A stretch of DNA of 64,000 bases from Alphaproteobacteria bacterium (GTDB lineage: Bacteria; Pseudomonadota; Alphaproteobacteria; Rickettsiales; 21-14-0-20-44-7), in contig JAYVPI010000001.1 in assembly GCA_043757405.1 (NCBI GenBank), positions 211,437-275,436 on the forward strand, in the 5' to 3' direction. Shown here in pieces: positions 20,925 through 59,082 of the stretch; the stretch's first letter is position 1; each line of letters begins with the position of its first letter. The position numbers were made by a program, and so were the translations under genes. Under the pieces are notes generated by a model. It was not told where the DNA came from. It saw only the letters and a program-made list of their open reading frames with translations, and did not search any database.

Positions 20925-21145
20925 GTCATTGCGAGCTCTTGCGCGGTGTTGTATGGTAAGACTCCATAACATAAATAAGGACTGTCATCCTCGAACCGAA
21001 GGTTCGGGGATCCAGGGTTAAAGCCACCGGCGGAGTGTTTGATCCTGGATCCCCGCCCAAGTGGGCGAGGATGACGGTGTCTGTTTTTGGTAATCAAATA
21101 TCAATAACTTACCGAGCCATGCAACAATGCCGCTCTTGCAATGAC
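20925..21145. repeat. Composite nested palindromic element: outer GTCATTGCGAG...CTTGCAATGAC, with inner GTCATCC...GGATGAC at 20984-21075
   Basis: The outer arms are imperfect inverted repeats and the inner element has two hairpin modules. The reverse complement closely matches 23849-24119. Confidence 0.8.
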
Positions 21146-22263: not shown

Positions 22264-22348
22264 TGGTGCGGTTAAAAAGACTCGAACTTTCACCCCGTGA
22301 AGGACAGCGACCTCAACGCTGCGCGTCTACCAATTCCGCCATAACCGC
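22264..22348 (-). tRNA. tRNA-Leu (anticodon GAG), class II, CCA encoded
   Basis: Manual fold: acceptor GCGGTTA/TAACCGC; anticodon stem CAGCG/CGCTG with loop TTGAGGT; long variable arm; T-loop TTCGAGT. The 3' end is ACCA. Confidence 0.85.
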
Positions 22349-22459: not shown

Positions 22460-23071
22460 ATGCAAATCATAAGATCAAACGAGCTGGTAGATTATCCTTC
22501 GGCGCTTTCCTTCATGGAAAACCGGGTGGACGCGATTATTGAGGGCACGGCGGAAAACACGCTTTGGCTGCTGGAACATCCGCCACTATACACTTCAGGT
22601 ACCTCAGCCAAAATCTCGGATTTATTGCAGCCGGAATTTCCAGTTTACAAGGCCGGGCGTGGCGGGGAATATACTTATCACGGGCCAGGGCAGCGCGTGG
22701 TTTATGTTATGCGGCGGCTGGAGAAACATGACTTGCGGGCCTATGTGCGGGATTTGGAACAGTGGATAATCAATACGCTGGCGCATTTTGGGATCATGGG
22801 TGAGCGGCGTGAGGGGCGGATTGGAATTTGGGTGGCGGCGAATGGCAGCGAAGCAAAAATCGCAGCACTGGGAATCCGCGTGCGGAAATGGGTGGCTTAT
22901 CATGGGATCGCGATCAACGTGAAACCGGATTTGCGCCATTTTGGCGGAATTGTTCCCTGTGGGATTTCAGAATTTGGGGTGACATCGTTTGAGAAACTGG
23001 GAGTGAAAGTTTCGCTGAATGAAGTGGATGAAGTTTTGATTGAGGAATTCATAAAATTATTTAAAAACTAA
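22460..23071 (+). CDS. lipB: Octanoyltransferase LipB
   Basis: Contains [11 protein letters not shown] and [17 protein letters not shown]. The start is set at MQIIRSNE; the upstream part of the track ORF runs through the palindrome. Confidence 0.9.
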
Positions 23072-23072
23072 C

Positions 23073-23119
23073 GTCATCCTGAGCATAGCGAAGGATCTTT
23101 CGCTTGCGCTCAAGATGAC
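23073..23119. repeat. 48-bp-type palindromic element (GTCATYCTGAGCGCAAGCGAAGGATC... family), intergenic copy
   Basis: GTCATCCTGAGCATAGCGAAGGATCTTTCGCTTGCGCTCAAGATGAC begins 2 nt after the lipB stop. Confidence 0.8.
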
Positions 23120-23133
23120 GTATAGATGGAATT

Positions 23134-23848: not shown

Positions 23849-24119
23849 GTCATTGTGGGCTTAGCCAGCGTTGTTGCATGGCTCGGAAAGTTATTGATAT
23901 TTGGTCACCAAAAACAGACGCCGTCATCCTCGCCCGCTTGGGCGGGGATCCAGGGTCGAACACTCCGTAGGTGTCTGTAGCCCTGGATCCCCGAACCTTC
24001 GGTTCGAGGATGACAGTCTTTATTCGTGCTATGGAATCTTAACCATGCAACAACGCCGCTTAAAGCCGTAATCAATCTCCATGCTTGAGTTGAGATTGCG
24101 GCTCGTAGGCCGCAATGAC
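23849..24119. repeat. Composite nested palindromic element, inverted copy of 20925-21145 (inner element 23923-24014)
   Basis: Aligns base for base, with few differences, to the reverse complement of 20925-21145. It carries an extra hairpin, ATTGCGGCTCGTAGGCCGCAAT. Confidence 0.8.
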
Positions 24120-34683: not shown

Positions 34684-34699
34684 TATCCCTATGCTACAT

Positions 34700-34763
34700 G
34701 TCATCCTGCGACTTGATCGCAGGATCTCTTAGAGAAGACCCTATGGTCAAGCCATAGGATGAC
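34700..34763. repeat. GTCATCC...GGATGAC palindromic element, intergenic
   Basis: GTCATCCTGCGACTTGATCGCAGGATC...CCTATGGTCAAGCCATAGGATGAC. The left module is identical to the one in dnaE (42660). Confidence 0.85.
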
Positions 34764-34769
34764 GTATAT

Positions 34770-39203: not shown

Positions 39204-39229
39204 GTCATCCCCGCTTGCGTGAGGATGAC
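39204..39229. repeat. Minimal GTCATCC-hairpin-GGATGAC element between era and recO
   Basis: The sequence is GTCATCCCCGCTTGCGTGAGGATGAC. Its last base is the first base of the era stop-codon complement. Confidence 0.55.
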
Positions 39230-40110
39230 TAAGAAATATTTTTTTTGTCATCTGCTTTTTTCACCTTCACATGTAAAAACAAATGCACCTTATTCCCCAA
39301 CATTTTGCCAAGCTCCAGCCGCGAATTCTGGCCGATTTTTTTGATCATGCTGGCATTGTCGCCGATAATGATTTTTTTGTGACCAAGGCTGCCTGCATAA
39401 ATCGTTTGGTGGATGGTGATGCCTTTTGGACCATTGTCCTTATAAATATCAGTTTCCACATCAATCGCATATGGCAGTTCTTCGCGCAGGAGGTAGAAGA
39501 GTTTTTCCCGCGTAACTTCCGCGGCAGTAAAACGGTCATCTTTGTCGGAAAGTTGGTCTTCAGGATATGCCCAGGGCTGGTCGCCGGAGTTTTTTACTAA
39601 ATATTCCACCAATTCATCGATGCCTTTATTTTTGCTGACCGAGGTCATGAAAATTTCACCAAAAATTCCTGAGTCGAACAATTCCTGCGCCAGTTCCAAC
39701 TTGGCCTCCTGCTCGGCAATGTCGATTTTGTTGATTACCGCAACGGCCTTTACCGCGCCCTGCGCCTTGCTAATCTTGCCTCTAATACCATCAATAATCT
39801 TCTGTGATAATTCCGTCATCCCGCGTTTGGCGTCTAGCAGAAATACAATCTGCTCAACATCTCCAATCCCCTGCCAGGCATGATCCACCATCTTCTTCTG
39901 GCGGTCGTCGTGTGGATTCATGATTCCGGGAGTATCCACAAAAACCAATTGGGTTTCGCCCCTTACAACAATCCCGCGAATATTTTCGCGCGTGGTTTGT
40001 GGCCGCGGGGAAACGATACTAACTTTGGAACCGACAATATGATTCACCAACGAAGACTTGCCCGCATTTGGTGCGCCGCATATGCCGATAAATGATGATT
40101 TTTGGCTCAT
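39229..40110 (-). CDS. era: GTPase Era
   Basis: GAPNAGKSSLVN, DTPG and a KH domain are present. The start is set at MSQKSSFIG (40110); the 25 upstream codons of the track ORF are read-through of a repeat element. Confidence 0.9.
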   Translation of the reverse strand: MSQKSSFIGICGAPNAGKSSLVNHIVGSKVSIVSPRPQTTRENIRGIVVRGETQLVFVDTPGIMNPHDDRQKKMVDHAWQGIGDVEQIVFLLDAKRGMTELSQKIIDGIRGKISKAQGAVKAVAVINKIDIAEQEAKLELAQELFDSGIFGEIFMTSVSKNKGIDELVEYLVKNSGDQPWAYPEDQLSDKDDRFTAAEVTREKLFYLLREELPYAIDVETDIYKDNGPKGITIHQTIYAGSLGHKKIIIGDNASMIKKIGQNSRLELGKMLGNKVHLFLHVKVKKADDKKNIS

Positions 40111-40125
40111 GGCCACATGATATAC

Positions 40126-40173
40126 GTCATCTTGAGCGCAAGCGAAAGATCTTTCGCTCGCGCTCAAGATGAC
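40126..40173. repeat. 48-bp palindromic element at the era/dnaE junction
   Basis: GTCATCTTGAGCGCAAGCGAAAGA|TCTTTCGCTCGCGCTCAAGATGAC has one arm mismatch. It contains the dnaE stop codon (40164-40166). Confidence 0.85.
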
Positions 40174-43100
40174 GATGGAAGGCAAATGCCCTCGATGAAC
40201 ATTATCTGCTCTTTTAAATTATCATTCACCGCATAATATCCCGGCAGTTCCAGCACCACTTCGCTAACGCCCGTTTGCGCTTTTAATATTACGCGGTTTT
40301 TGAACAACATGCCGCTTTCATATATATTCGCAGCTAATAAATTTCTCAGTTTCGCCACCGCTTCCAGGTTATCTGCAACAAAATTCAAGTCCTGGACTTT
40401 TATAAAACGCAGGAAATTTGCCTTAATTGCCGCTTGCAATTCTTCTATCCTCTCTGCCAACAAACGCACACCACCTTCATCTTTCTTCGCCTCGGCCGTA
40501 ATCAATATCGGCGTATTACTCGCCAACATTTCCGCCGCGCGGGTGATTAGGTCATCTTCGTAGAGAACAATTTCAAACACCCCCATCCCATCCGAAACTT
40601 TCGCAAACGCAAACCGCCCACGCTTGCCGGAACGAATATTCAAGGTTGCCAGCACACCAGCTAAACGAACTTTGGTCGAAGCGCTCTTCAGGCGTTCTTC
40701 GATTTGTATTGATGGCAACACGCCCATTTCATCGAGGATATGCTGATAATCATTCAATGGATGGTCTGATAAATAAAACCCAAATGCCTCATATTCCGCC
40801 TTCAGACGCTCATTGGAATCCCAATCGCTGGCCTGTACTAACGAGGGTTTTGGCGCTTCGCCAATCGTTCCTTCGCCAAATAAGCTGATTTGCGAAGAGT
40901 CAATTTCTTCCTGGCAAATATTGTTATACCGGCTGAGCATCTCCGCCGATTCCAGGATCTGCCGGCGGTTGCAAGCCATGCCGTCAAACGCCCCTGCCTT
41001 CGCCAAACCTTCCAAATGCTTCTTATTAATCACCTTAACATCGCAGCGTTTGCAAAAATCAAACACATCGGCGAACTTCCCGTTCTCCTTCCTCTGCGCC
41101 GCCATTGCTTTCGCCGCTTCGATACCAACGCCTTTTAATGCACCTAGCGCATAACGGATTGAGCCGTTTTCAGGTTGGAAATAAGCCTCTGAGGAGTTGA
41201 TATCAGGAGACAAAACTTTGATACCGCGTTTGCTGGCTTCGTGTTTATAAAAGCTGAGTTTGTCGGTGTCGGCAATATCGAGGTTCATACAGGCGGTCAA
41301 AAACTCCACCGGGTAATGGCAGCTCAAATATGCTGTCTGGTAGGCAATCACCGAATAAGCCACCGCGTGGGATTTGTTGAAACCGTAACCGGCGAATTTG
41401 GCGATCAAATCAAAAATATCCGCCGCCAGTTTTTTATTGATCCCCTTCTCCGCCGCACCTTCGGCAAACATCAGGCGTTGTTCATCCATCTCCGCCTTAA
41501 TCTTCTTGCCCATCGCCCGCCGCAGCAAATCCGCTTTGCCAAGCGAATATCCGGCCAATATTTGCGCGGATTGCATAACCTGTTCTTGATAAACCAAAAT
41601 TCCATATGTCTCATTCAACAAATCCGACAATGAAATATGCGGATATTGCACCTCTTCCTTGCCGTGTTTCCGCGCATTATAACTCGGAATATTTTCCATC
41701 GGGCCGGGGCGGCAAAGCGAAGTTAGTGCCACGATATCCTCAAATTTATCAGGGCGCATTTTGCGAATTGCGTCTTTCACCAAAGTTGTATCCAACTGGA
41801 ATACACCCGCCGTTTCACCTTTGGAAAGCATATGGAAAATCTTCTCATCATCCAGCGGTAGGTTGTGGATATCAACTTTATTCCCCCCAGCCTCAACAAA
41901 CTGCCGCGCCTTATCCACCAGCGTCAATGTACGCAAACCGAGGAAATCGAACTTCACCAACCCGGCCGTTTCCGCATCTTTCATCGAATATTGCGAAACC
42001 GGCATTTCTGAGCGCGGGTCTTTATATAACGGCACCAACTCCACCAATGGCCGGTCAGCAATCAATATTCCCGCCGCATGTGTAGAAGCATGGCGATTCA
42101 ATCCTTCGAGTTTCAGCGCCACATTCAACAATCGTCCGATATTCTCATCATCACGTTGCAACCGCCGCAGTTCAGGATCCATATCTATCGCTTTGGAAAG
42201 CGTCACCGGGTCAATTGGATTGAACGGAATCATTTTAGAAATCCTATCAACTTCCATGTAGGGAATTTGCATCACCCGCCCGACATCGCGCAGCACCGCC
42301 CGCGCTTGTAGTTTTCCGAAAGTGATAATCTGGCAGACACGGTCGTGGCCATATTTATTACGCACATAATCGATCACCTCATCGCGCCGCTCCTGGCAGA
42401 AATCGATATCAAAATCCGGCATTGATACACGTTCAGGATTCAAGAACCGTTCAAACAGCAAGCCAAACCGCAACGGGTCAACATCGGTGATTTGTAGCGC
42501 CCAGGCTACTAAGGAACCTGCACCCGAACCCCGTCCCGGCCCCACCGGAATTCCCTGGCCCTTCGCCCATTTGATGAAGTCGGATACGATTAAGAAATAG
42601 CCCGGAAATTTCATCTTGATAATGACATCAAGCTCGAATTCCAGCCTAGTCCAATATTCGTCATCCTGCGACTTGATCGCAGGATCTTGTGAGTGCATCT
42701 CAGGAGGTCCTGCGGTCAAGCCGCAGGATGACGTTTTAGTATTTAAGCGCTCCTGCAAACCCTCACGCGCCTGCACCCGTAACTCATCTTCCTGCGTCCT
42801 GCCAGCCTCAGTTGGATAATCCGGCAACATCGGCTGACGTCCTTCTGCTTTAACCGAGCAACGTTTCGCAAGCTGCACCGTATTGGCAATCGCCTCCGGA
42901 ATATCCGCAAAAATCGCTATCATTTCCTCAGCTGATTTAAAATAGAATTGGTCGTTATATTTCTTGCGGTTTTCATCAACCAAATATTTGCCCTCGGCGA
43001 TACATATCAGCGCGTCATGGGCCTCGGACATATCCTGGGTTGAATAGAAGCAATTATTAGTGGCGATCAGTGGGAGATTATATTTATAGGCTATATCTAT

Positions 43101-43625
43101 CAGGCCAGGTTCAACTTTTTCCTCTTCCTCCAATCCATGCCGCGTCAATTCAACATAGAGGCGGTTCGGGAACATACCATTCAGGCGCTCGGCGAATTGT
43201 TGGGCTTTTTGGGTTTCACCCTTGGAGATGAGTTTAGCCATTTCCCCTTCCACTCCGGCGGTTAGGCATAGCAAACCTTCGGTATATTGTTCCAACTCCA
43301 CCAGATCAAGGCTCGCTTCGTGCGGGGAGCTGGAGCGGAGTATAGATTGGCTGACTAATTTGAGGAGATTTTGGAAGCCTGTTTGATTTTGCGCATATAA
43401 AACTAATTTTGAACCCTCAACTTTGACTTCGCAGCCGATAATGGGCTGCACACCTTTATAGGCCGCCGCTTTGGAAAATTCCAGGATGCCAAAAAGATTG
43501 CCGCTATCAGTAATCGCCACAGCCGGCATATCATAATGCACCGCCATCTCCACCAGTTCCCCAATCCTAATCGCGCCCTCGGAAAGCGAAAACTGGGTGT
43601 GGTTGCGGAGATGGATGAATTGCAT
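40164..43625 (-). CDS. dnaE: DNA polymerase III subunit alpha
   Basis: The PHP N-terminus (MQFIHLRNHTQFSLSEGA) and FPGYFLIV are present. Length is 1153 aa. Confidence 0.97.
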   Translation of the reverse strand: MQFIHLRNHTQFSLSEGAIRIGELVEMAVHYDMPAVAITDSGNLFGILEFSKAAAYKGVQPIIGCEVKVEGSKLVLYAQNQTGFQNLLKLVSQSILRSSSPHEASLDLVELEQYTEGLLCLTAGVEGEMAKLISKGETQKAQQFAERLNGMFPNRLYVELTRHGLEEEEKVEPGLIDIAYKYNLPLIATNNCFYSTQDMSEAHDALICIAEGKYLVDENRKKYNDQFYFKSAEEMIAIFADIPEAIANTVQLAKRCSVKAEGRQPMLPDYPTEAGRTQEDELRVQAREGLQERLNTKTSSCGLTAGPPEMHSQDPAIKSQDDEYWTRLEFELDVIIKMKFPGYFLIVSDFIKWAKGQGIPVGPGRGSGAGSLVAWALQITDVDPLRFGLLFERFLNPERVSMPDFDIDFCQERRDEVIDYVRNKYGHDRVCQIITFGKLQARAVLRDVGRVMQIPYMEVDRISKMIPFNPIDPVTLSKAIDMDPELRRLQRDDENIGRLLNVALKLEGLNRHASTHAAGILIADRPLVELVPLYKDPRSEMPVSQYSMKDAETAGLVKFDFLGLRTLTLVDKARQFVEAGGNKVDIHNLPLDDEKIFHMLSKGETAGVFQLDTTLVKDAIRKMRPDKFEDIVALTSLCRPGPMENIPSYNARKHGKEEVQYPHISLSDLLNETYGILVYQEQVMQSAQILAGYSLGKADLLRRAMGKKIKAEMDEQRLMFAEGAAEKGINKKLAADIFDLIAKFAGYGFNKSHAVAYSVIAYQTAYLSCHYPVEFLTACMNLDIADTDKLSFYKHEASKRGIKVLSPDINSSEAYFQPENGSIRYALGALKGVGIEAAKAMAAQRKENGKFADVFDFCKRCDVKVINKKHLEGLAKAGAFDGMACNRRQILESAEMLSRYNNICQEEIDSSQISLFGEGTIGEAPKPSLVQASDWDSNERLKAEYEAFGFYLSDHPLNDYQHILDEMGVLPSIQIEERLKSASTKVRLAGVLATLNIRSGKRGRFAFAKVSDGMGVFEIVLYEDDLITRAAEMLASNTPILITAEAKKDEGGVRLLAERIEELQAAIKANFLRFIKVQDLNFVADNLEAVAKLRNLLAANIYESGMLFKNRVILKAQTGVSEVVLELPGYYAVNDNLKEQIMFIEGICLPSSS
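42660..42732. repeat. GTCATCC...GGATGAC element inserted in frame in dnaE
   Basis: GTCATCCTGCGACTTGATCGCAGGATC...CCTGCGGTCAAGCCGCAGGATGAC encodes SSCGLTAGPPEMHSQDPAIKSQDD. Confidence 0.85.
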
Positions 43626-49654: not shown

Positions 49655-50377
49655 CTATTTTTTATCGCAAACCGCCTCAAAAAATATCGCCCGCGTGGTA
49701 TTGGCGAGGTTTTTCTTCTGATACTTAGTTTCAATATGGTCAATAGGTTGTGTTTGCCAATCTGCCCTGGAACCTGCCAACCAACGAAATTTATCGTGTT
49801 CCAGCAATTCTCTGGCGATCCATTTAGCATAATCTTCGTGATCCGTGGCAATTCTGAGCCTGGCATCCCGCTTCATAATTCGTGCAAGCAAGTCTAAAGT
49901 TTGCTTCGATATTATCCGGCGTTTATTCTGCCGTTTCTTTGGCCACGGATCGGGGAACAGTATAAATACACGATCAATAACTCCCTCCCACACGTCATCC
50001 TGCGGCTCGACCGCAGGATCTCCTATGGTCAAGCCATATGGTGACGTAATTAATTGACGAAAATCTCCGGCATAGACTCGGATATTCTTAAGCTCATTCT
50101 CTTCAATCCCACGCAATAATTTTACAGTTCCGTTTACAAACGGCTCGCAGCCAATAAAGCCAATTTTGGGATTTGCCAGCGCCTGATGCAATAAATGACC
50201 ACCATCACCAAAGCCGATCTCCAGCCAGATTTCTTTGAAATCAAACTTAGGAAAGCCGTCAACTTTCACTTTGGGCAAAACTTCCGCCAACAGCTTTTTG
50301 GAATTATCACGCAGCTTGCGCGACTTGGTACGACCAAAGCTTTGCAGGTATTTAGGCGACTGCTTTGCGTAATTCAT
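49655..50377 (-). CDS. trmB: tRNA (guanine46-N7)-methyltransferase TrmB
   Basis: Contains [14 protein letters not shown]. The start is set at ATG 50377 and overlaps the metK 3' end by 26 nt. The track's 50443 start is less likely. Confidence 0.85.
49994..50045. repeat. GTCATCC...GGTGAC element inserted in frame in trmB
   Basis: GTCATCCTGCGGCTCGACCGCAGGATCTCCTATGGTCAAGCCATATGGTGAC encodes [17 protein letters not shown]. Confidence 0.8.
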
Positions 50378-52194: not shown

Positions 52195-53760
52195 TTAAAC
52201 TTTTCTTCTAAAAATTAATAAAAACTCCACACTGATTATGATTAATCCAAATATTATCCAATCACCGTATAATGAATATATAGTTACCGAATTATTTAAT
52301 TCAAGATCGGCGGATAAAAATCCATGCTGATTATAAGCCAATGATTTTACAATCCGCCCATTCTTATCAATAATCGCCGAAACTCCTGTATTAGCCGCCC
52401 GCAACATTGGCACCCCTTGCTCAATTGAACGCATTTGCGACATCGCCAGATGTTGATACGGCCCCGTCGAATTTCCAAACCACCCATCATTAGTAACATT
52501 AACCAGCAAATCCGGCTTGACTGCCGAATGGGAAAATTCCGGAAATGTGACTTCATAACAAATCAACGGCAAAAACCCCGGCCCGTTTTTATATTTCATC
52601 ACCTCACGCTTGCCCCCTTGCGAAAAATCCAGCGCTCCAGGCGTAATTTTTTCCAGCGGCAAATAATTCCGGAACGGCACAAACTCCCCAAACGGCACAA
52701 GGTGAATTTTGTCATAAGACTGATAAATCCCATCTTTGCTGATAGCATAAAGCGTGTTCCAAACCTGGTAATTACTTTTGCTTTCCCCGCTAGAGCGCAA
52801 CCCGCCAGTAACCAACACCCCATTATCCGGCGCCACACGCCTCAACAAATCCGTCACTGGCTGCTGCCGGTTCAAATAATAAGGCGCTCCCGATTCCGGC
52901 CACAAAACTATATCCGCGTTTTTATAATCCAGCGTCTGCATGAAATCTATATTCTCAATAAACTGCTTCTTCGCCGCCAACGGCTCCCACTTCAACGATT
53001 GCTCAACATTGGGTTGGAAGATTATGACTTTGGCAGTTTTATCTAAATCACCCTCACCTTTGCCAAAACATAACAGGCCATACAGAATTATAATCCCTAC
53101 AAGAGCAACAACCCCAACAAGTGATTTCTTATTTTTATAATAAAGCGGCAATAGCGAAATAATTATCACTACATAGCTCAACAAATAAACTCCGCCCGCT
53201 GAAGCAAGCTGTGAAAAAATAGTTGAAACTAGTGCCGTATATCCAATCAAATTCCATGGAAACCCCGTGAACAACCATGTGCGGATTAATTCAAAAACCA
53301 CCCATAATATAGAGAAAAGGATAATATCATTCCAATTCCCGCATTTGTCATCCTCGGGCTTGACCCGAGGGTCCAGCGATGAGTATGCCGCATGGCTGGA
53401 TCCCAGCCTTCGCTGGGATGACCTAAATGCGAGAGCAAACAACCCAATATAAATCGCCAGACCAAATGGAATCCCGCATACCGCAAACGGAATCAGCCAC
53501 GCAAATTTTTCTGCATCAACAAGTAGTGAGTTAGCAATCCAATATAAGCCAAACACAAAATACCCAAAGCCGAATGCCCAGCCGATTTTGAATGCCTGTA
53601 TCTTATTTTCCGCCGCAGCAAGAATTTTAAAAAATATTGGGAATGAGATAAATAAAACCGGAAAGATATAAAACGGCGCCAATGCCAAATCCGCCAATCC
53701 GCCAGCGGCAATTAGCGTTAAATACTTCAGCTTTCCTTGCAAAAAAAATTTTATCCCCAT
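52195..53760 (-). CDS. lnt: Apolipoprotein N-acyltransferase
   Basis: An N-terminal polytopic region and a CN-hydrolase domain with the LICYEVTFPE catalytic Cys context are present. Confidence 0.9.
   Translation of the reverse strand: MGIKFFLQGKLKYLTLIAAGGLADLALAPFYIFPVLFISFPIFFKILAAAENKIQAFKIGWAFGFGYFVFGLYWIANSLLVDAEKFAWLIPFAVCGIPFGLAIYIGLFALAFRSSQRRLGSSHAAYSSLDPRVKPEDDKCGNWNDIILFSILWVVFELIRTWLFTGFPWNLIGYTALVSTIFSQLASAGGVYLLSYVVIIISLLPLYYKNKKSLVGVVALVGIIILYGLLCFGKGEGDLDKTAKVIIFQPNVEQSLKWEPLAAKKQFIENIDFMQTLDYKNADIVLWPESGAPYYLNRQQPVTDLLRRVAPDNGVLVTGGLRSSGESKSNYQVWNTLYAISKDGIYQSYDKIHLVPFGEFVPFRNYLPLEKITPGALDFSQGGKREVMKYKNGPGFLPLICYEVTFPEFSHSAVKPDLLVNVTNDGWFGNSTGPYQHLAMSQMRSIEQGVPMLRAANTGVSAIIDKNGRIVKSLAYNQHGFLSADLELNNSVTIYSLYGDWIIFGLIIISVEFLLIFRRKV
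53347..53422. repeat. GTCATCC...GGGATGAC element inserted in frame in lnt
   Basis: GTCATCCTCGGGCTTGACCCGAGG...GATCCCAGCCTTCGCTGGGATGAC encodes GSSHAAYSSLDPRVKPEDD. Confidence 0.8.
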
Positions 53761-53763
53761 AAC

Positions 53764-53834
53764 GTCATCCTGCGGCTTGACCGCAGGAACTCCTCATACA
53801 CGCACCAGACCCTGCAATCAAGTAGCAGGGTGAC
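53764..53834. repeat. GTCATCC...GGGTGAC element at the lnt start / bioF end
   Basis: GTCATCCTGCGGCTTGACCGCAGG...CCCTGCAATCAAGTAGCAGGGTGAC. It contains the bioF stop (53818-53820) and lies 3 nt upstream of the lnt ATG. Confidence 0.8.
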
Positions 53835-54951
53835 ACATATTTAGTGTTTTAAGCCAATCCGCCAATAAATCAATTTCACTTTTCGTATGCGCCGCCGTCA
53901 CCGAAATGCGGAGCCGCGCCGTCCCCTTAGGCACCGTTGGCGGCCGCATCGCCGAGACTAGTATTTTATTATCCTTAAGCAACTTCTCCGCCGCTAGCGC
54001 CTTTTCCTCGCTGCCCAAAATAATAGGAACGATACTTGAAGTTCCGTCATTACGAGCGAAGCGCGGCAATGACGATTTAAGATATTCCGTATTCTTCAAT
54101 ACTTTCAAATATAGCTCATCCCGCCCAGCAATCTCCAGCGCCTTTATCGCCGCACCAACCGCGAATGGCGGCAGCCCAGTTGAATAAATCAATGATCGCG
54201 CCTTAGTCTCCAAATACCGAATCAAAGCCCGAGAACCACAAACATACCCCCCATAACTCCCCAGCGCCTTTGACATTGTCCCGATATAAATGTGAGCTTT
54301 AAGTTTTGATTTTTGATAAATGGAGTGTGCGCCGTCAACTATTAGTGTGCAGTTGTTTTTATCGGCGATTTCCTTCAGCTCATCAACCGGAGCAAAATCC
54401 CCATCCATTGAAAAGATCTCTTCGGTGATGATGAGCCGCCTGCGCTTATCGTCATTCTGAGCGCAAGCGAAGGATCCTTCGCTTGCGCTCAGAATGACGT
54501 CTTTCTCCAAACACTTCTTCAAGTCAGCAACATCATTATGCTTAAACCGCACCAGCTTTGCGCCGGAGAGCTTTATTGCGTCGATTATAGAAGCGTGGAC
54601 TAATTTATCGGCATAAACCACTTCCGGCTCCAGCGCTGTGATAACGCCAAGATTTGCCAGATATCCGCTGCCAAATACCGTGGCGGCCTCATAACCTTTA
54701 TAAGCCGCGATTTTTTCAGCAAATTCCCCAAATAATGGATGATTTCCGCCCGCAATCCTGCTTGCCCCCGCTCCTGCGCCATATTTTTCCGCAGCTTCTA
54801 TTCCGGCAATAATCACTTCCGGATGGCGGCTTAAACCTAAATAATCATTTGATGTAAAATTGATAAATCCTTCCCCCCACTCACCCTTGGGCGTTCGCAG
54901 GAGATTTTTATCCTTCAAATCATTTAGTTTTTGCTGTAATAGACTATCCAT
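53818..54951 (-). CDS. bioF: 8-amino-7-oxononanoate synthase
   Basis: SNDYLGL and the PLP-Lys context [12 protein letters not shown] are present. The start is set at ATG 54951 (MDSLLQQKL...); the track's 55011 start is TTG. Confidence 0.85.
54451..54498. repeat. Perfect 48-bp palindrome inserted in frame in bioF
   Basis: GTCATTCTGAGCGCAAGCGAAGGA|TCCTTCGCTTGCGCTCAGAATGAC has 24+24 arms with no mismatch. It encodes [16 protein letters not shown]. Confidence 0.9.

Positions 54952-55934: not shown

Positions 55935-59082
<3,148 letters not shown>

Follow-up and report, generated by a model that had tools for sequence, protein, structure and literature searches.

A dimer of CGTC-tagged palindromic repeats at the bioF/lnt junction of an alphaproteobacterium supplies the BioF tail and stop codon and carries a Shine-Dalgarno-like motif that is probably incidental

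In the 64-kb stretch of alphaproteobacterial DNA analysed here (the window), a palindromic repeat fills the junction between bioF and lnt, and the question raised by this locus is whether such a repeat has been recruited for the expression of the two genes or is a tolerated insertion whose apparent signals are by-products. The list of open reading frames (ORFs) in the window places both genes on the minus strand (Table 1), and BioF has a class I/II aminotransferase domain, its best non-self homologues being 8-amino-7-oxononanoate synthases. On that strand the junction reads ...CTT AAA ACA CTA AAT ATG TGT CAC CCT GCT ACT TGA ttgcagggtctggtgcgtgtatgaggagttcctgcggtcaagccgcAGGAtgacgtt ATG GGG ATA AAA..., with a distance of 57 nt from the bioF stop to the lnt ATG. 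An earlier, sequence-only reading had described a 71-bp element (53764-53834) that fills the junction, is entered by bioF for 17 nt (53818-53834) encoding (C)HPAT and TGA, has its left end (53764) 3 nt from the lnt ATG, and holds AGGA at a canonical Shine-Dalgarno (SD) distance; all four statements agree with the sequence, the AGGA (53771-53768) being followed by 7 nt and then by the lnt ATG. When the terminal tags are counted, the element comprises 53763-53835 (73 nt), lies 2 nt from the lnt ATG and is entered by bioF for 18 nt. The tetranucleotide TATG is present at both flanks (53836-53839 and 53759-53762), probably by chance.

Table 1. Positions of the junction genes, the parts of the repeat dimer between them, and related repeats in the 64-kb window.
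Feature	Position	Strand	Remarks
Junction-family copy, permease/FtsJ	~34699-34766		Flanked by convergent genes for an amino-acid permease and an FtsJ-like methyltransferase, whose stops are 15 and 5 nt away
Second-family repeat, dnaE/era	40125-40174	-	50 nt, CGTC-ended, palindromic; supplies the dnaE TGA
Junction-family copy in dnaE	~42659-42734		In-frame insert
Junction-family copy in TrmB-like methyltransferase ORF	~49993-50047		No spacer; in frame
lnt (apolipoprotein N-acyltransferase)	52195-53760	-	LNT_N and CN_hydrolase (Pfam); ATG at 53760 backed by homology
TGTC-tagged unit in lnt	53346-53372		In frame
lnt-proximal REP unit	53763-53789	+	Tag CGTC, stem ATCCTGCGG/CCGCAGGAA, loop CTTGA; identical to family consensus
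AGGA, SD-like tetramer	53768-53771	-	3' arm of REP stem; 7 nt before lnt ATG (53760-53758)
Tails and variable spacer between units	53790-53808	-	GAGGAG on the mRNA strand at 53795-53790
bioF-proximal REP unit	53809-53835	-	Tag TGTC, stem ACCCTGCTA/TTGCAGGGT, loop CTTGA; holds the (C)HPAT codons and stop
bioF (8-amino-7-oxononanoate synthase)	53818-54951	-	Aminotran_1_2 (Pfam); longest ORF extends to 55011
bioF stop TGA	53818-53820	-	Inside the CTTGA loop of the REP unit
Two further repeat inserts in bioF	54450-54499; about 54040-54070		In frame
Junction-family copy in bioA	~56998-57065		In-frame insert

We found that the element is a head-to-head dimer, with the tags outside, of CGTC-tagged REP hairpins. 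A search of the window for GTCAYCCTGC-N9-GCAGG, allowing up to 2 mismatches, returned 11 matches against an expectation of 0.19 derived from 100 shuffles, none of which reached 11, and the matches resolve into five two-armed copies that can be aligned over their whole length. Each arm consists of a CGTC or TGTC tag, a 9-bp stem (ATCCTGCGG), a 5-nt loop (CTTGA) and a 3-nt tail, and the two arms of each copy are inverted, with the tags outside and a spacer of 0-21 nt between them. A generic search for this anatomy (stem of 9-10 bp beginning A(T/C), loop of 3-5 nt, tail of 3 nt) located at least 19 tagged units belonging to several sub-families in the 64 kb, all of them tagged CGTC or TGTC. In the junction copy, the bioF-proximal stem has one T-T mismatch and, relative to the consensus, two compensatory pair changes, the second pair now being C-G. 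The tails in the junction family are CTC and CTG, and other units in the window have CCA. No target-site duplication was consistent across the flanks of the five copies, the TATG pair being confined to the junction copy, and in this the element departs from a classical MITE (a transposase-derived element with terminal inverted repeats). Rfam contained no family for the element (best match Yfr1, E = 7.2); the only Rfam or ARAGORN match in the window is a tRNA-Leu (GAG) at 22264-22348 on the minus strand.

This anatomy is that of the CGTC-tagged REPs, which have a CGTC tag (variants TGTC and CCTC), a stem of 8-9 bp starting with AT, a loop of 4-5 nt and, at the untagged end, an unpaired 3-nt tail that is mostly CCA, and among which head-to-head dimers, whose tags point outward and whose spacer varies in length, predominate and can be folded into one large stem-loop (PMC3733652). 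The junction dimer carries CGTC on the lnt side and TGTC on the bioF side, its two hairpins are ATCCTGCGG/CTTGA/CCGCAGGAA and ACCCTGCTA/CTTGA/TTGCAGGGT, and the head-to-head form is found in 5/5 copies of the family (spacers 0-21 nt); its tail, CTN, departs from the CCA usual for the sub-family. The published hosts are mainly Alphaproteobacteria, with copies found mostly between co-directional or convergent ORFs, clustering near the 3' ends of upstream ORFs, and some lying within genes, including dnaE, and RPE-4 and RPE-6 of Rickettsia are equated with CGTC-4 and CGTC-1 (PMC3733652); the host of the window is an undescribed lineage. Dispersal in the window follows the same pattern, with copies at the bioF/lnt, dnaE/era, lipB-like/yaaA and permease/ftsJ junctions and in frame within dnaE, bioA, bioF, lnt and the trmB-like gene. 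Judged by peptides and anatomy, the window repeats resemble the CGTC-3 type: units in the window encode DPAVKPQDD and, inside Lnt, DPRVKPEDD, which share the xVKPxxD type with the CGTC-3 peptides DGRVKPGHD and DARVKPAHD of the published supplement (PMC3733652). They are also like the Rickettsia palindromic elements in being palindromic, in occurring in alphaproteobacteria and in being inserted in frame into essential genes, to which they add short peptides. RPE-1, however, is longer (about 100-150 bp), and the interest here lies in a gene junction rather than an internal insert.

One frame of the consensus unit reads (R/C)HPAA followed by a stop in CTTGA, and the other two are open; the open frames are those used in bioA, dnaE and other genes, and at the bioF/lnt junction it is the frame with the stop that is in use. 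The intragenic units or dimers (in dnaE, bioA, the TrmB-like gene and lnt, and twice in bioF) add segments of 9-25 residues. Donation of a stop codon is not unique to bioF, because the dnaE/era junction has the same layout: the TGA of dnaE (40164-43625; stop at 40164-40166) sits 11 nt into the second-family repeat, and era (about 39229-40113, minus strand) begins 6-14 nt beyond that repeat. Another second-family copy (23071-23120) fills the gap between a LipB-like gene, whose TAA stop abuts the CGTC tag, and yaaA, whose ATG follows 13 nt after the repeat. A third family of CGTC/TGTC-tagged dimers is represented at 20983-21076 and 23922-24015, with the stem ATCCTCGCCC/GGGCGGGGAT, the tail CCA and spacers of ~37 nt. 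REP termini that supply stop codons have been reported, about 10% of intragenic REPs being located at ORF ends (Di Nocera, De Gregorio and Rocco 2013, PMC3733652). The stops in those published cases come from the GTAG tag (TAG), whereas the bioF stop is a TGA in the hairpin loop.

The state of the junction in the absence of the repeat was deduced from nine relatives (L001, L002, L003/L004, L005, L086, L087, L094, L095 and L096/L097), whose contigs include the closest BioF homologues found (57-75% identity). All nine keep the gene order bioB <- -> bioF-lnt-HTH-metK. In eight of them, bioF and lnt overlap by 4 nt (GTGA/ATGA), and in L086 the bioF TGA is mutated and the overlap is 16 nt; neither a spacer nor a repeat is present at the junction in any of the nine. 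The junction repeat family was absent from all 88 loci that were searched, and the relatives contain other REP types instead. BioF of the relatives ends in ...LK(K/R/T)I(L/T)* and stops some six residues short of the end of the window BioF, and BioF tails are naturally variable. This comparison bears out the proposal that the element provides the C-terminal tail (CHPAT) and stop of BioF, as the repeat is absent and BioF is shorter in the nine relatives and the extra tail is not conserved. The lnt start is likewise sound, because no earlier start codon lies between the ATG and the in-frame stop that precedes it, and because the N-terminal sequence, MGIKFFLQGKLKYLT, can be aligned with (V/M)NKFFQGRLKYLT of the relatives; the start is conserved, and homology gives no sign of initiation elsewhere. 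A scan of GTDB species genomes for BioF returned nothing closer than 42-43% identity, and a metagenome scan for the conserved DNA pattern at the 3' end of bioF returned only L005 and L004 again, plus three chance matches; the BioF homologues with source names, which are more distant (45-50% identity), come from MAG Alphaproteobacteria or Rickettsiales. The insert in the window BioA is missing from BioA of L001, L003 and L088. The two BioF loops and the BioA loop that hold inserts in the window are occupied in L005, L086 and L087 by different REP-like inserts (for example CHSRAGGNPGSQTQELDPSLRWDG in L005 BioA), and these shared sites may be either recurrent insertion hot spots or the positions of old inserts that have diverged.

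Excision of exactly 53763-53835 gives CTA AAT ATG TTA TGG GGA TAA, in which BioF would end in ...LKTLNMLWG* and overlap lnt by 10 nt, a workable, L086-like arrangement that may have preceded the insertion. Treating TATG as a target duplication is implausible, because an in-frame BioF-Lnt fusion would be implied, and the excision model with no duplication is therefore preferred. As no relative above about 75% BioF identity was found, we can only infer when the repeat arrived and precisely what sequence it interrupted.

These comparisons show that the repeat created a new BioF tail (...NM-CHPAT) together with its stop. We consider that the locus is best explained, with a probability of roughly 0.6, by a tolerated insertion of a selfish REP dimer that brought signals as by-products, and not by one that was recruited to express the genes. 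In this account, a palindromic repeat of the CGTC-3/RPE-like kind, mobile now or in the past, entered the ancestral stop-start overlap of bioF and lnt at a point 2 nt before the lnt ATG. The old end of bioF was thereby cut off, and the frame now runs 17-18 nt into the repeat and ends at the TGA of the CTTGA loop. The BioF tail is about six residues longer, with five extra codons taken from the repeat, and the ancestral start of lnt is retained, at a distance of 57 nt from the bioF stop. Such a copy may persist because in this frame the repeat quickly replaces the lost stop and because BioF tolerates variable tails. The AGGA would be a mere invariant part of the stem, which may add some anti-SD pairing and so make up in part for the hidden lnt start; Lnt synthesis is predicted to be reduced, the lnt start being buried in a stable hairpin and efficient re-initiation at the -4 overlap being lost.

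The sequence-only reading had suggested that the element was exapted for the expression signals of both genes, and of that claim the origin of the BioF tail and stop in the repeat stands, while the recruitment of an SD is disfavoured by an invariant stem, predicted pairing, a net energetic cost and weak use of SDs in the window. The tetramer does have an SD core and an appropriate spacing (7 nt to the ATG), its duplex with the anti-SD ACCUCCUUA amounts to -4.1 kcal/mol, and the junction copy is the only one in the window that abuts a start at SD distance. It is, however, an invariant part of the stem in all copies of the family, whatever their context, without adaptation specific to this locus. 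The element alone is predicted to fold as a single hairpin of -36.9 kcal/mol, and the 121-nt stretch around it has a minimum free energy (MFE) of -37.4 kcal/mol (z-score -2.2; 7/200 shuffles fold as well). In every state modelled, including those with the 5' arm removed, the probability that AGG is unpaired is at most 0.002. Removal of the 5' half, which mimics a ribosome on the bioF UGA, leaves the 3' unit to refold alone into a 9-bp hairpin of -15.9 kcal/mol, and the cost of opening the region from -20 to +12 of lnt falls from 14.3 to only 13.1-13.5 kcal/mol. In these models the AGGA thus lacks the accessibility of a functional SD. The folding is thermodynamic and takes no account of the kinetics of co-transcriptional folding, of helicases, of S1 or of standby binding, and all statements on RNA are predictions.

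The opening cost of 14.3 kcal/mol compares with 4.6 kcal/mol for the dimer-less junction and with 3.9-8.9 kcal/mol in eight relatives, and among 51 starts in the window (median 8.3) that of lnt ranks 8th in the degree of structure, counted from the most structured. Anti-SD pairing before lnt is -4.1 kcal/mol, as against +1.5 kcal/mol in the excision model and about -1 kcal/mol in most relatives. On balance, the insertion is predicted to hinder the initiation of lnt, because the cost in structure (+9.7 kcal/mol) exceeds the gain in pairing (about -5.6 kcal/mol). A census of 54 genes in the window, with crude start calls (the first start codon of each ORF), found an SD core before about 17% of starts, compared with 8% of random positions, and mean anti-SD energies that are equal at starts (-2.4) and in the background (-2.2); in six or seven of eight relatives, lnt is not preceded by an SD. 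Most leaders are A/T-rich, and this lineage seems to lean little on SD pairing. On these models, a functional role of the AGGA as an SD is not supported, and the apparent motif is probably incidental. The variable spacer of the junction copy contains a GAGGAG (53795-53790, minus strand) specific to this copy, located 29 nt before the lnt ATG and predicted to be partly unpaired. Were the 3' hairpin to form, this motif would be brought to a spatial distance of about 10 nt from the ATG; it could be part of a split ribosome-binding site or a chance occurrence.

The opposite view, that the terminus of the repeat has been exapted as a functional SD and that lnt translation depends on the AGGA at -11 to -8, is in our opinion unlikely. 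It draws on the position of the AGGA, at optimal spacing (7 nt) before a start supported by homology, on the gain in anti-SD pairing over both the excision model and most relatives, and on the loss of the -4 overlap, the arrangement in which ribosomes re-initiate most efficiently (Tian and Salis 2015, PMC4538824); with that overlap destroyed, an independent ribosome-binding site would be useful and lnt may need the AGGA, which is a point against regarding the motif as a by-product. Repeats that carry a ribosome-binding site are also known: Neisseria REP2 and the Borrelia IR bring a promoter, ribosome-binding site and ATG (Morelle 2003; review PMC3184786), and the junction dimer is like them in being a dispersed repeat directly upstream of a gene and in having a ribosome-binding motif. 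The site and start of REP2, however, are dedicated and accessible, and REP2 occurs regularly upstream of genes, whereas the AGGA here is a residue of a hairpin stem. The tetramer is the same in all copies in any context, it is predicted to be paired both in the long hairpin and in the local 9-bp hairpin, the predicted net initiation energy is worse with the insert than without it, and most genes of the window and most lnt orthologues manage with no SD.

A further possibility, to which we give still less weight, is that the dimer acts mainly at the level of RNA: as a barrier to 3'-exonucleases, as an RNase III-type site that uncouples the mRNA levels of the two genes, or as a cause of ribosome stalling that lowers BioF. 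The hairpin is stable, though only moderately beyond shuffled sequences, and Di Nocera et al. (PMC3733652) argue that REPs between co-directional genes are RNA elements. REPs of Escherichia coli located up to 15 nt from a stop stall ribosomes and lower the expression of the upstream gene (Liang, Rudd and Deutscher 2015, as cited in PMC12306157), and the bioF stop is inside the hairpin itself and so within that distance. The two cases are alike in having a stable REP hairpin near a stop in an operon; the E. coli REP/BIME repeats are of the GTAG type, a different superfamily, whereas here the stop is both enclosed and donated by the hairpin. The two compensatory changes that preserve the bioF-proximal stem indicate that the hairpin has been maintained, or else a subtype, and could hint at selection on RNA structure, a second point against the by-product interpretation. 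A scan of 53600-54000 for promoters and terminators, however, found none, with no terminator-like T-run at the junction, and the same family is present inside ORFs, where such roles are unlikely; the placement of these copies suggests tolerance rather than function.

It is very doubtful that the REP dimer was turned into a module that controls the two cistrons; such a module would have replaced the -4 coupling, would keep Lnt low and separately tunable, with the AGGA as a true SD gated by RNase, helicase or temperature, and would trim BioF through stalling at the buried stop. In that case, selection on RNA structure would explain why the bioF-proximal unit has compensatory substitutions. As regards translational coupling (PMC4538824), the relatives have the classic -4 overlap, and the window hairpin overlaps the upstream coding sequence in the manner of a 'coupled' inhibitory structure; the hairpin predicted to hide the lnt start is self-contained and downstream ('non-coupled'), however, and ribosomes arriving from upstream are therefore not predicted to free that start. 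It is most improbable that ribosomes ending bioF open the one hairpin whose 5' arm is the end of bioF and whose 3' arm is the lnt SD, and so uncover the lnt start and restore coupling across 57 nt. In favour of this idea, bioF codons (GUCACCCUGC) are paired with the lnt SD region (GCAGGAUGAC) in the MFE structure, and coupling through unfolding by ribosomes is well established (PMC4538824). Without the 5' half, however, the 3' unit refolds with AGG paired, and a modelled relief of at most 1.2 kcal/mol led us to reject this as the main mechanism.

The locus reveals no new mechanism, since stop-donating REPs and repeats resembling ribosome-binding sites have already been described, and the family, the dimer form, the preference for 3' ends of ORFs, in-frame insertion and the donation of stops are all published. 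What is distinctive here is that the hairpin loop, and not the tag, furnishes the stop, and that the disruption of an ancestral overlap is well documented: because nine relatives pin down that overlap, replacement of the stop, lengthening of the tail and breaking of the coupling can be seen as a single step. The bioF/lnt junction is a clean and, in principle, datable case of selfish palindromic repeats reshaping gene ends in a repeat-ridden alphaproteobacterial genome. It also exemplifies a general filter, in which only insertions whose frame soon meets the loop TGA are likely to survive at such a position. The locus would be useful mainly as a test case for the modulation of translation by REP hairpins outside E. 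coli.
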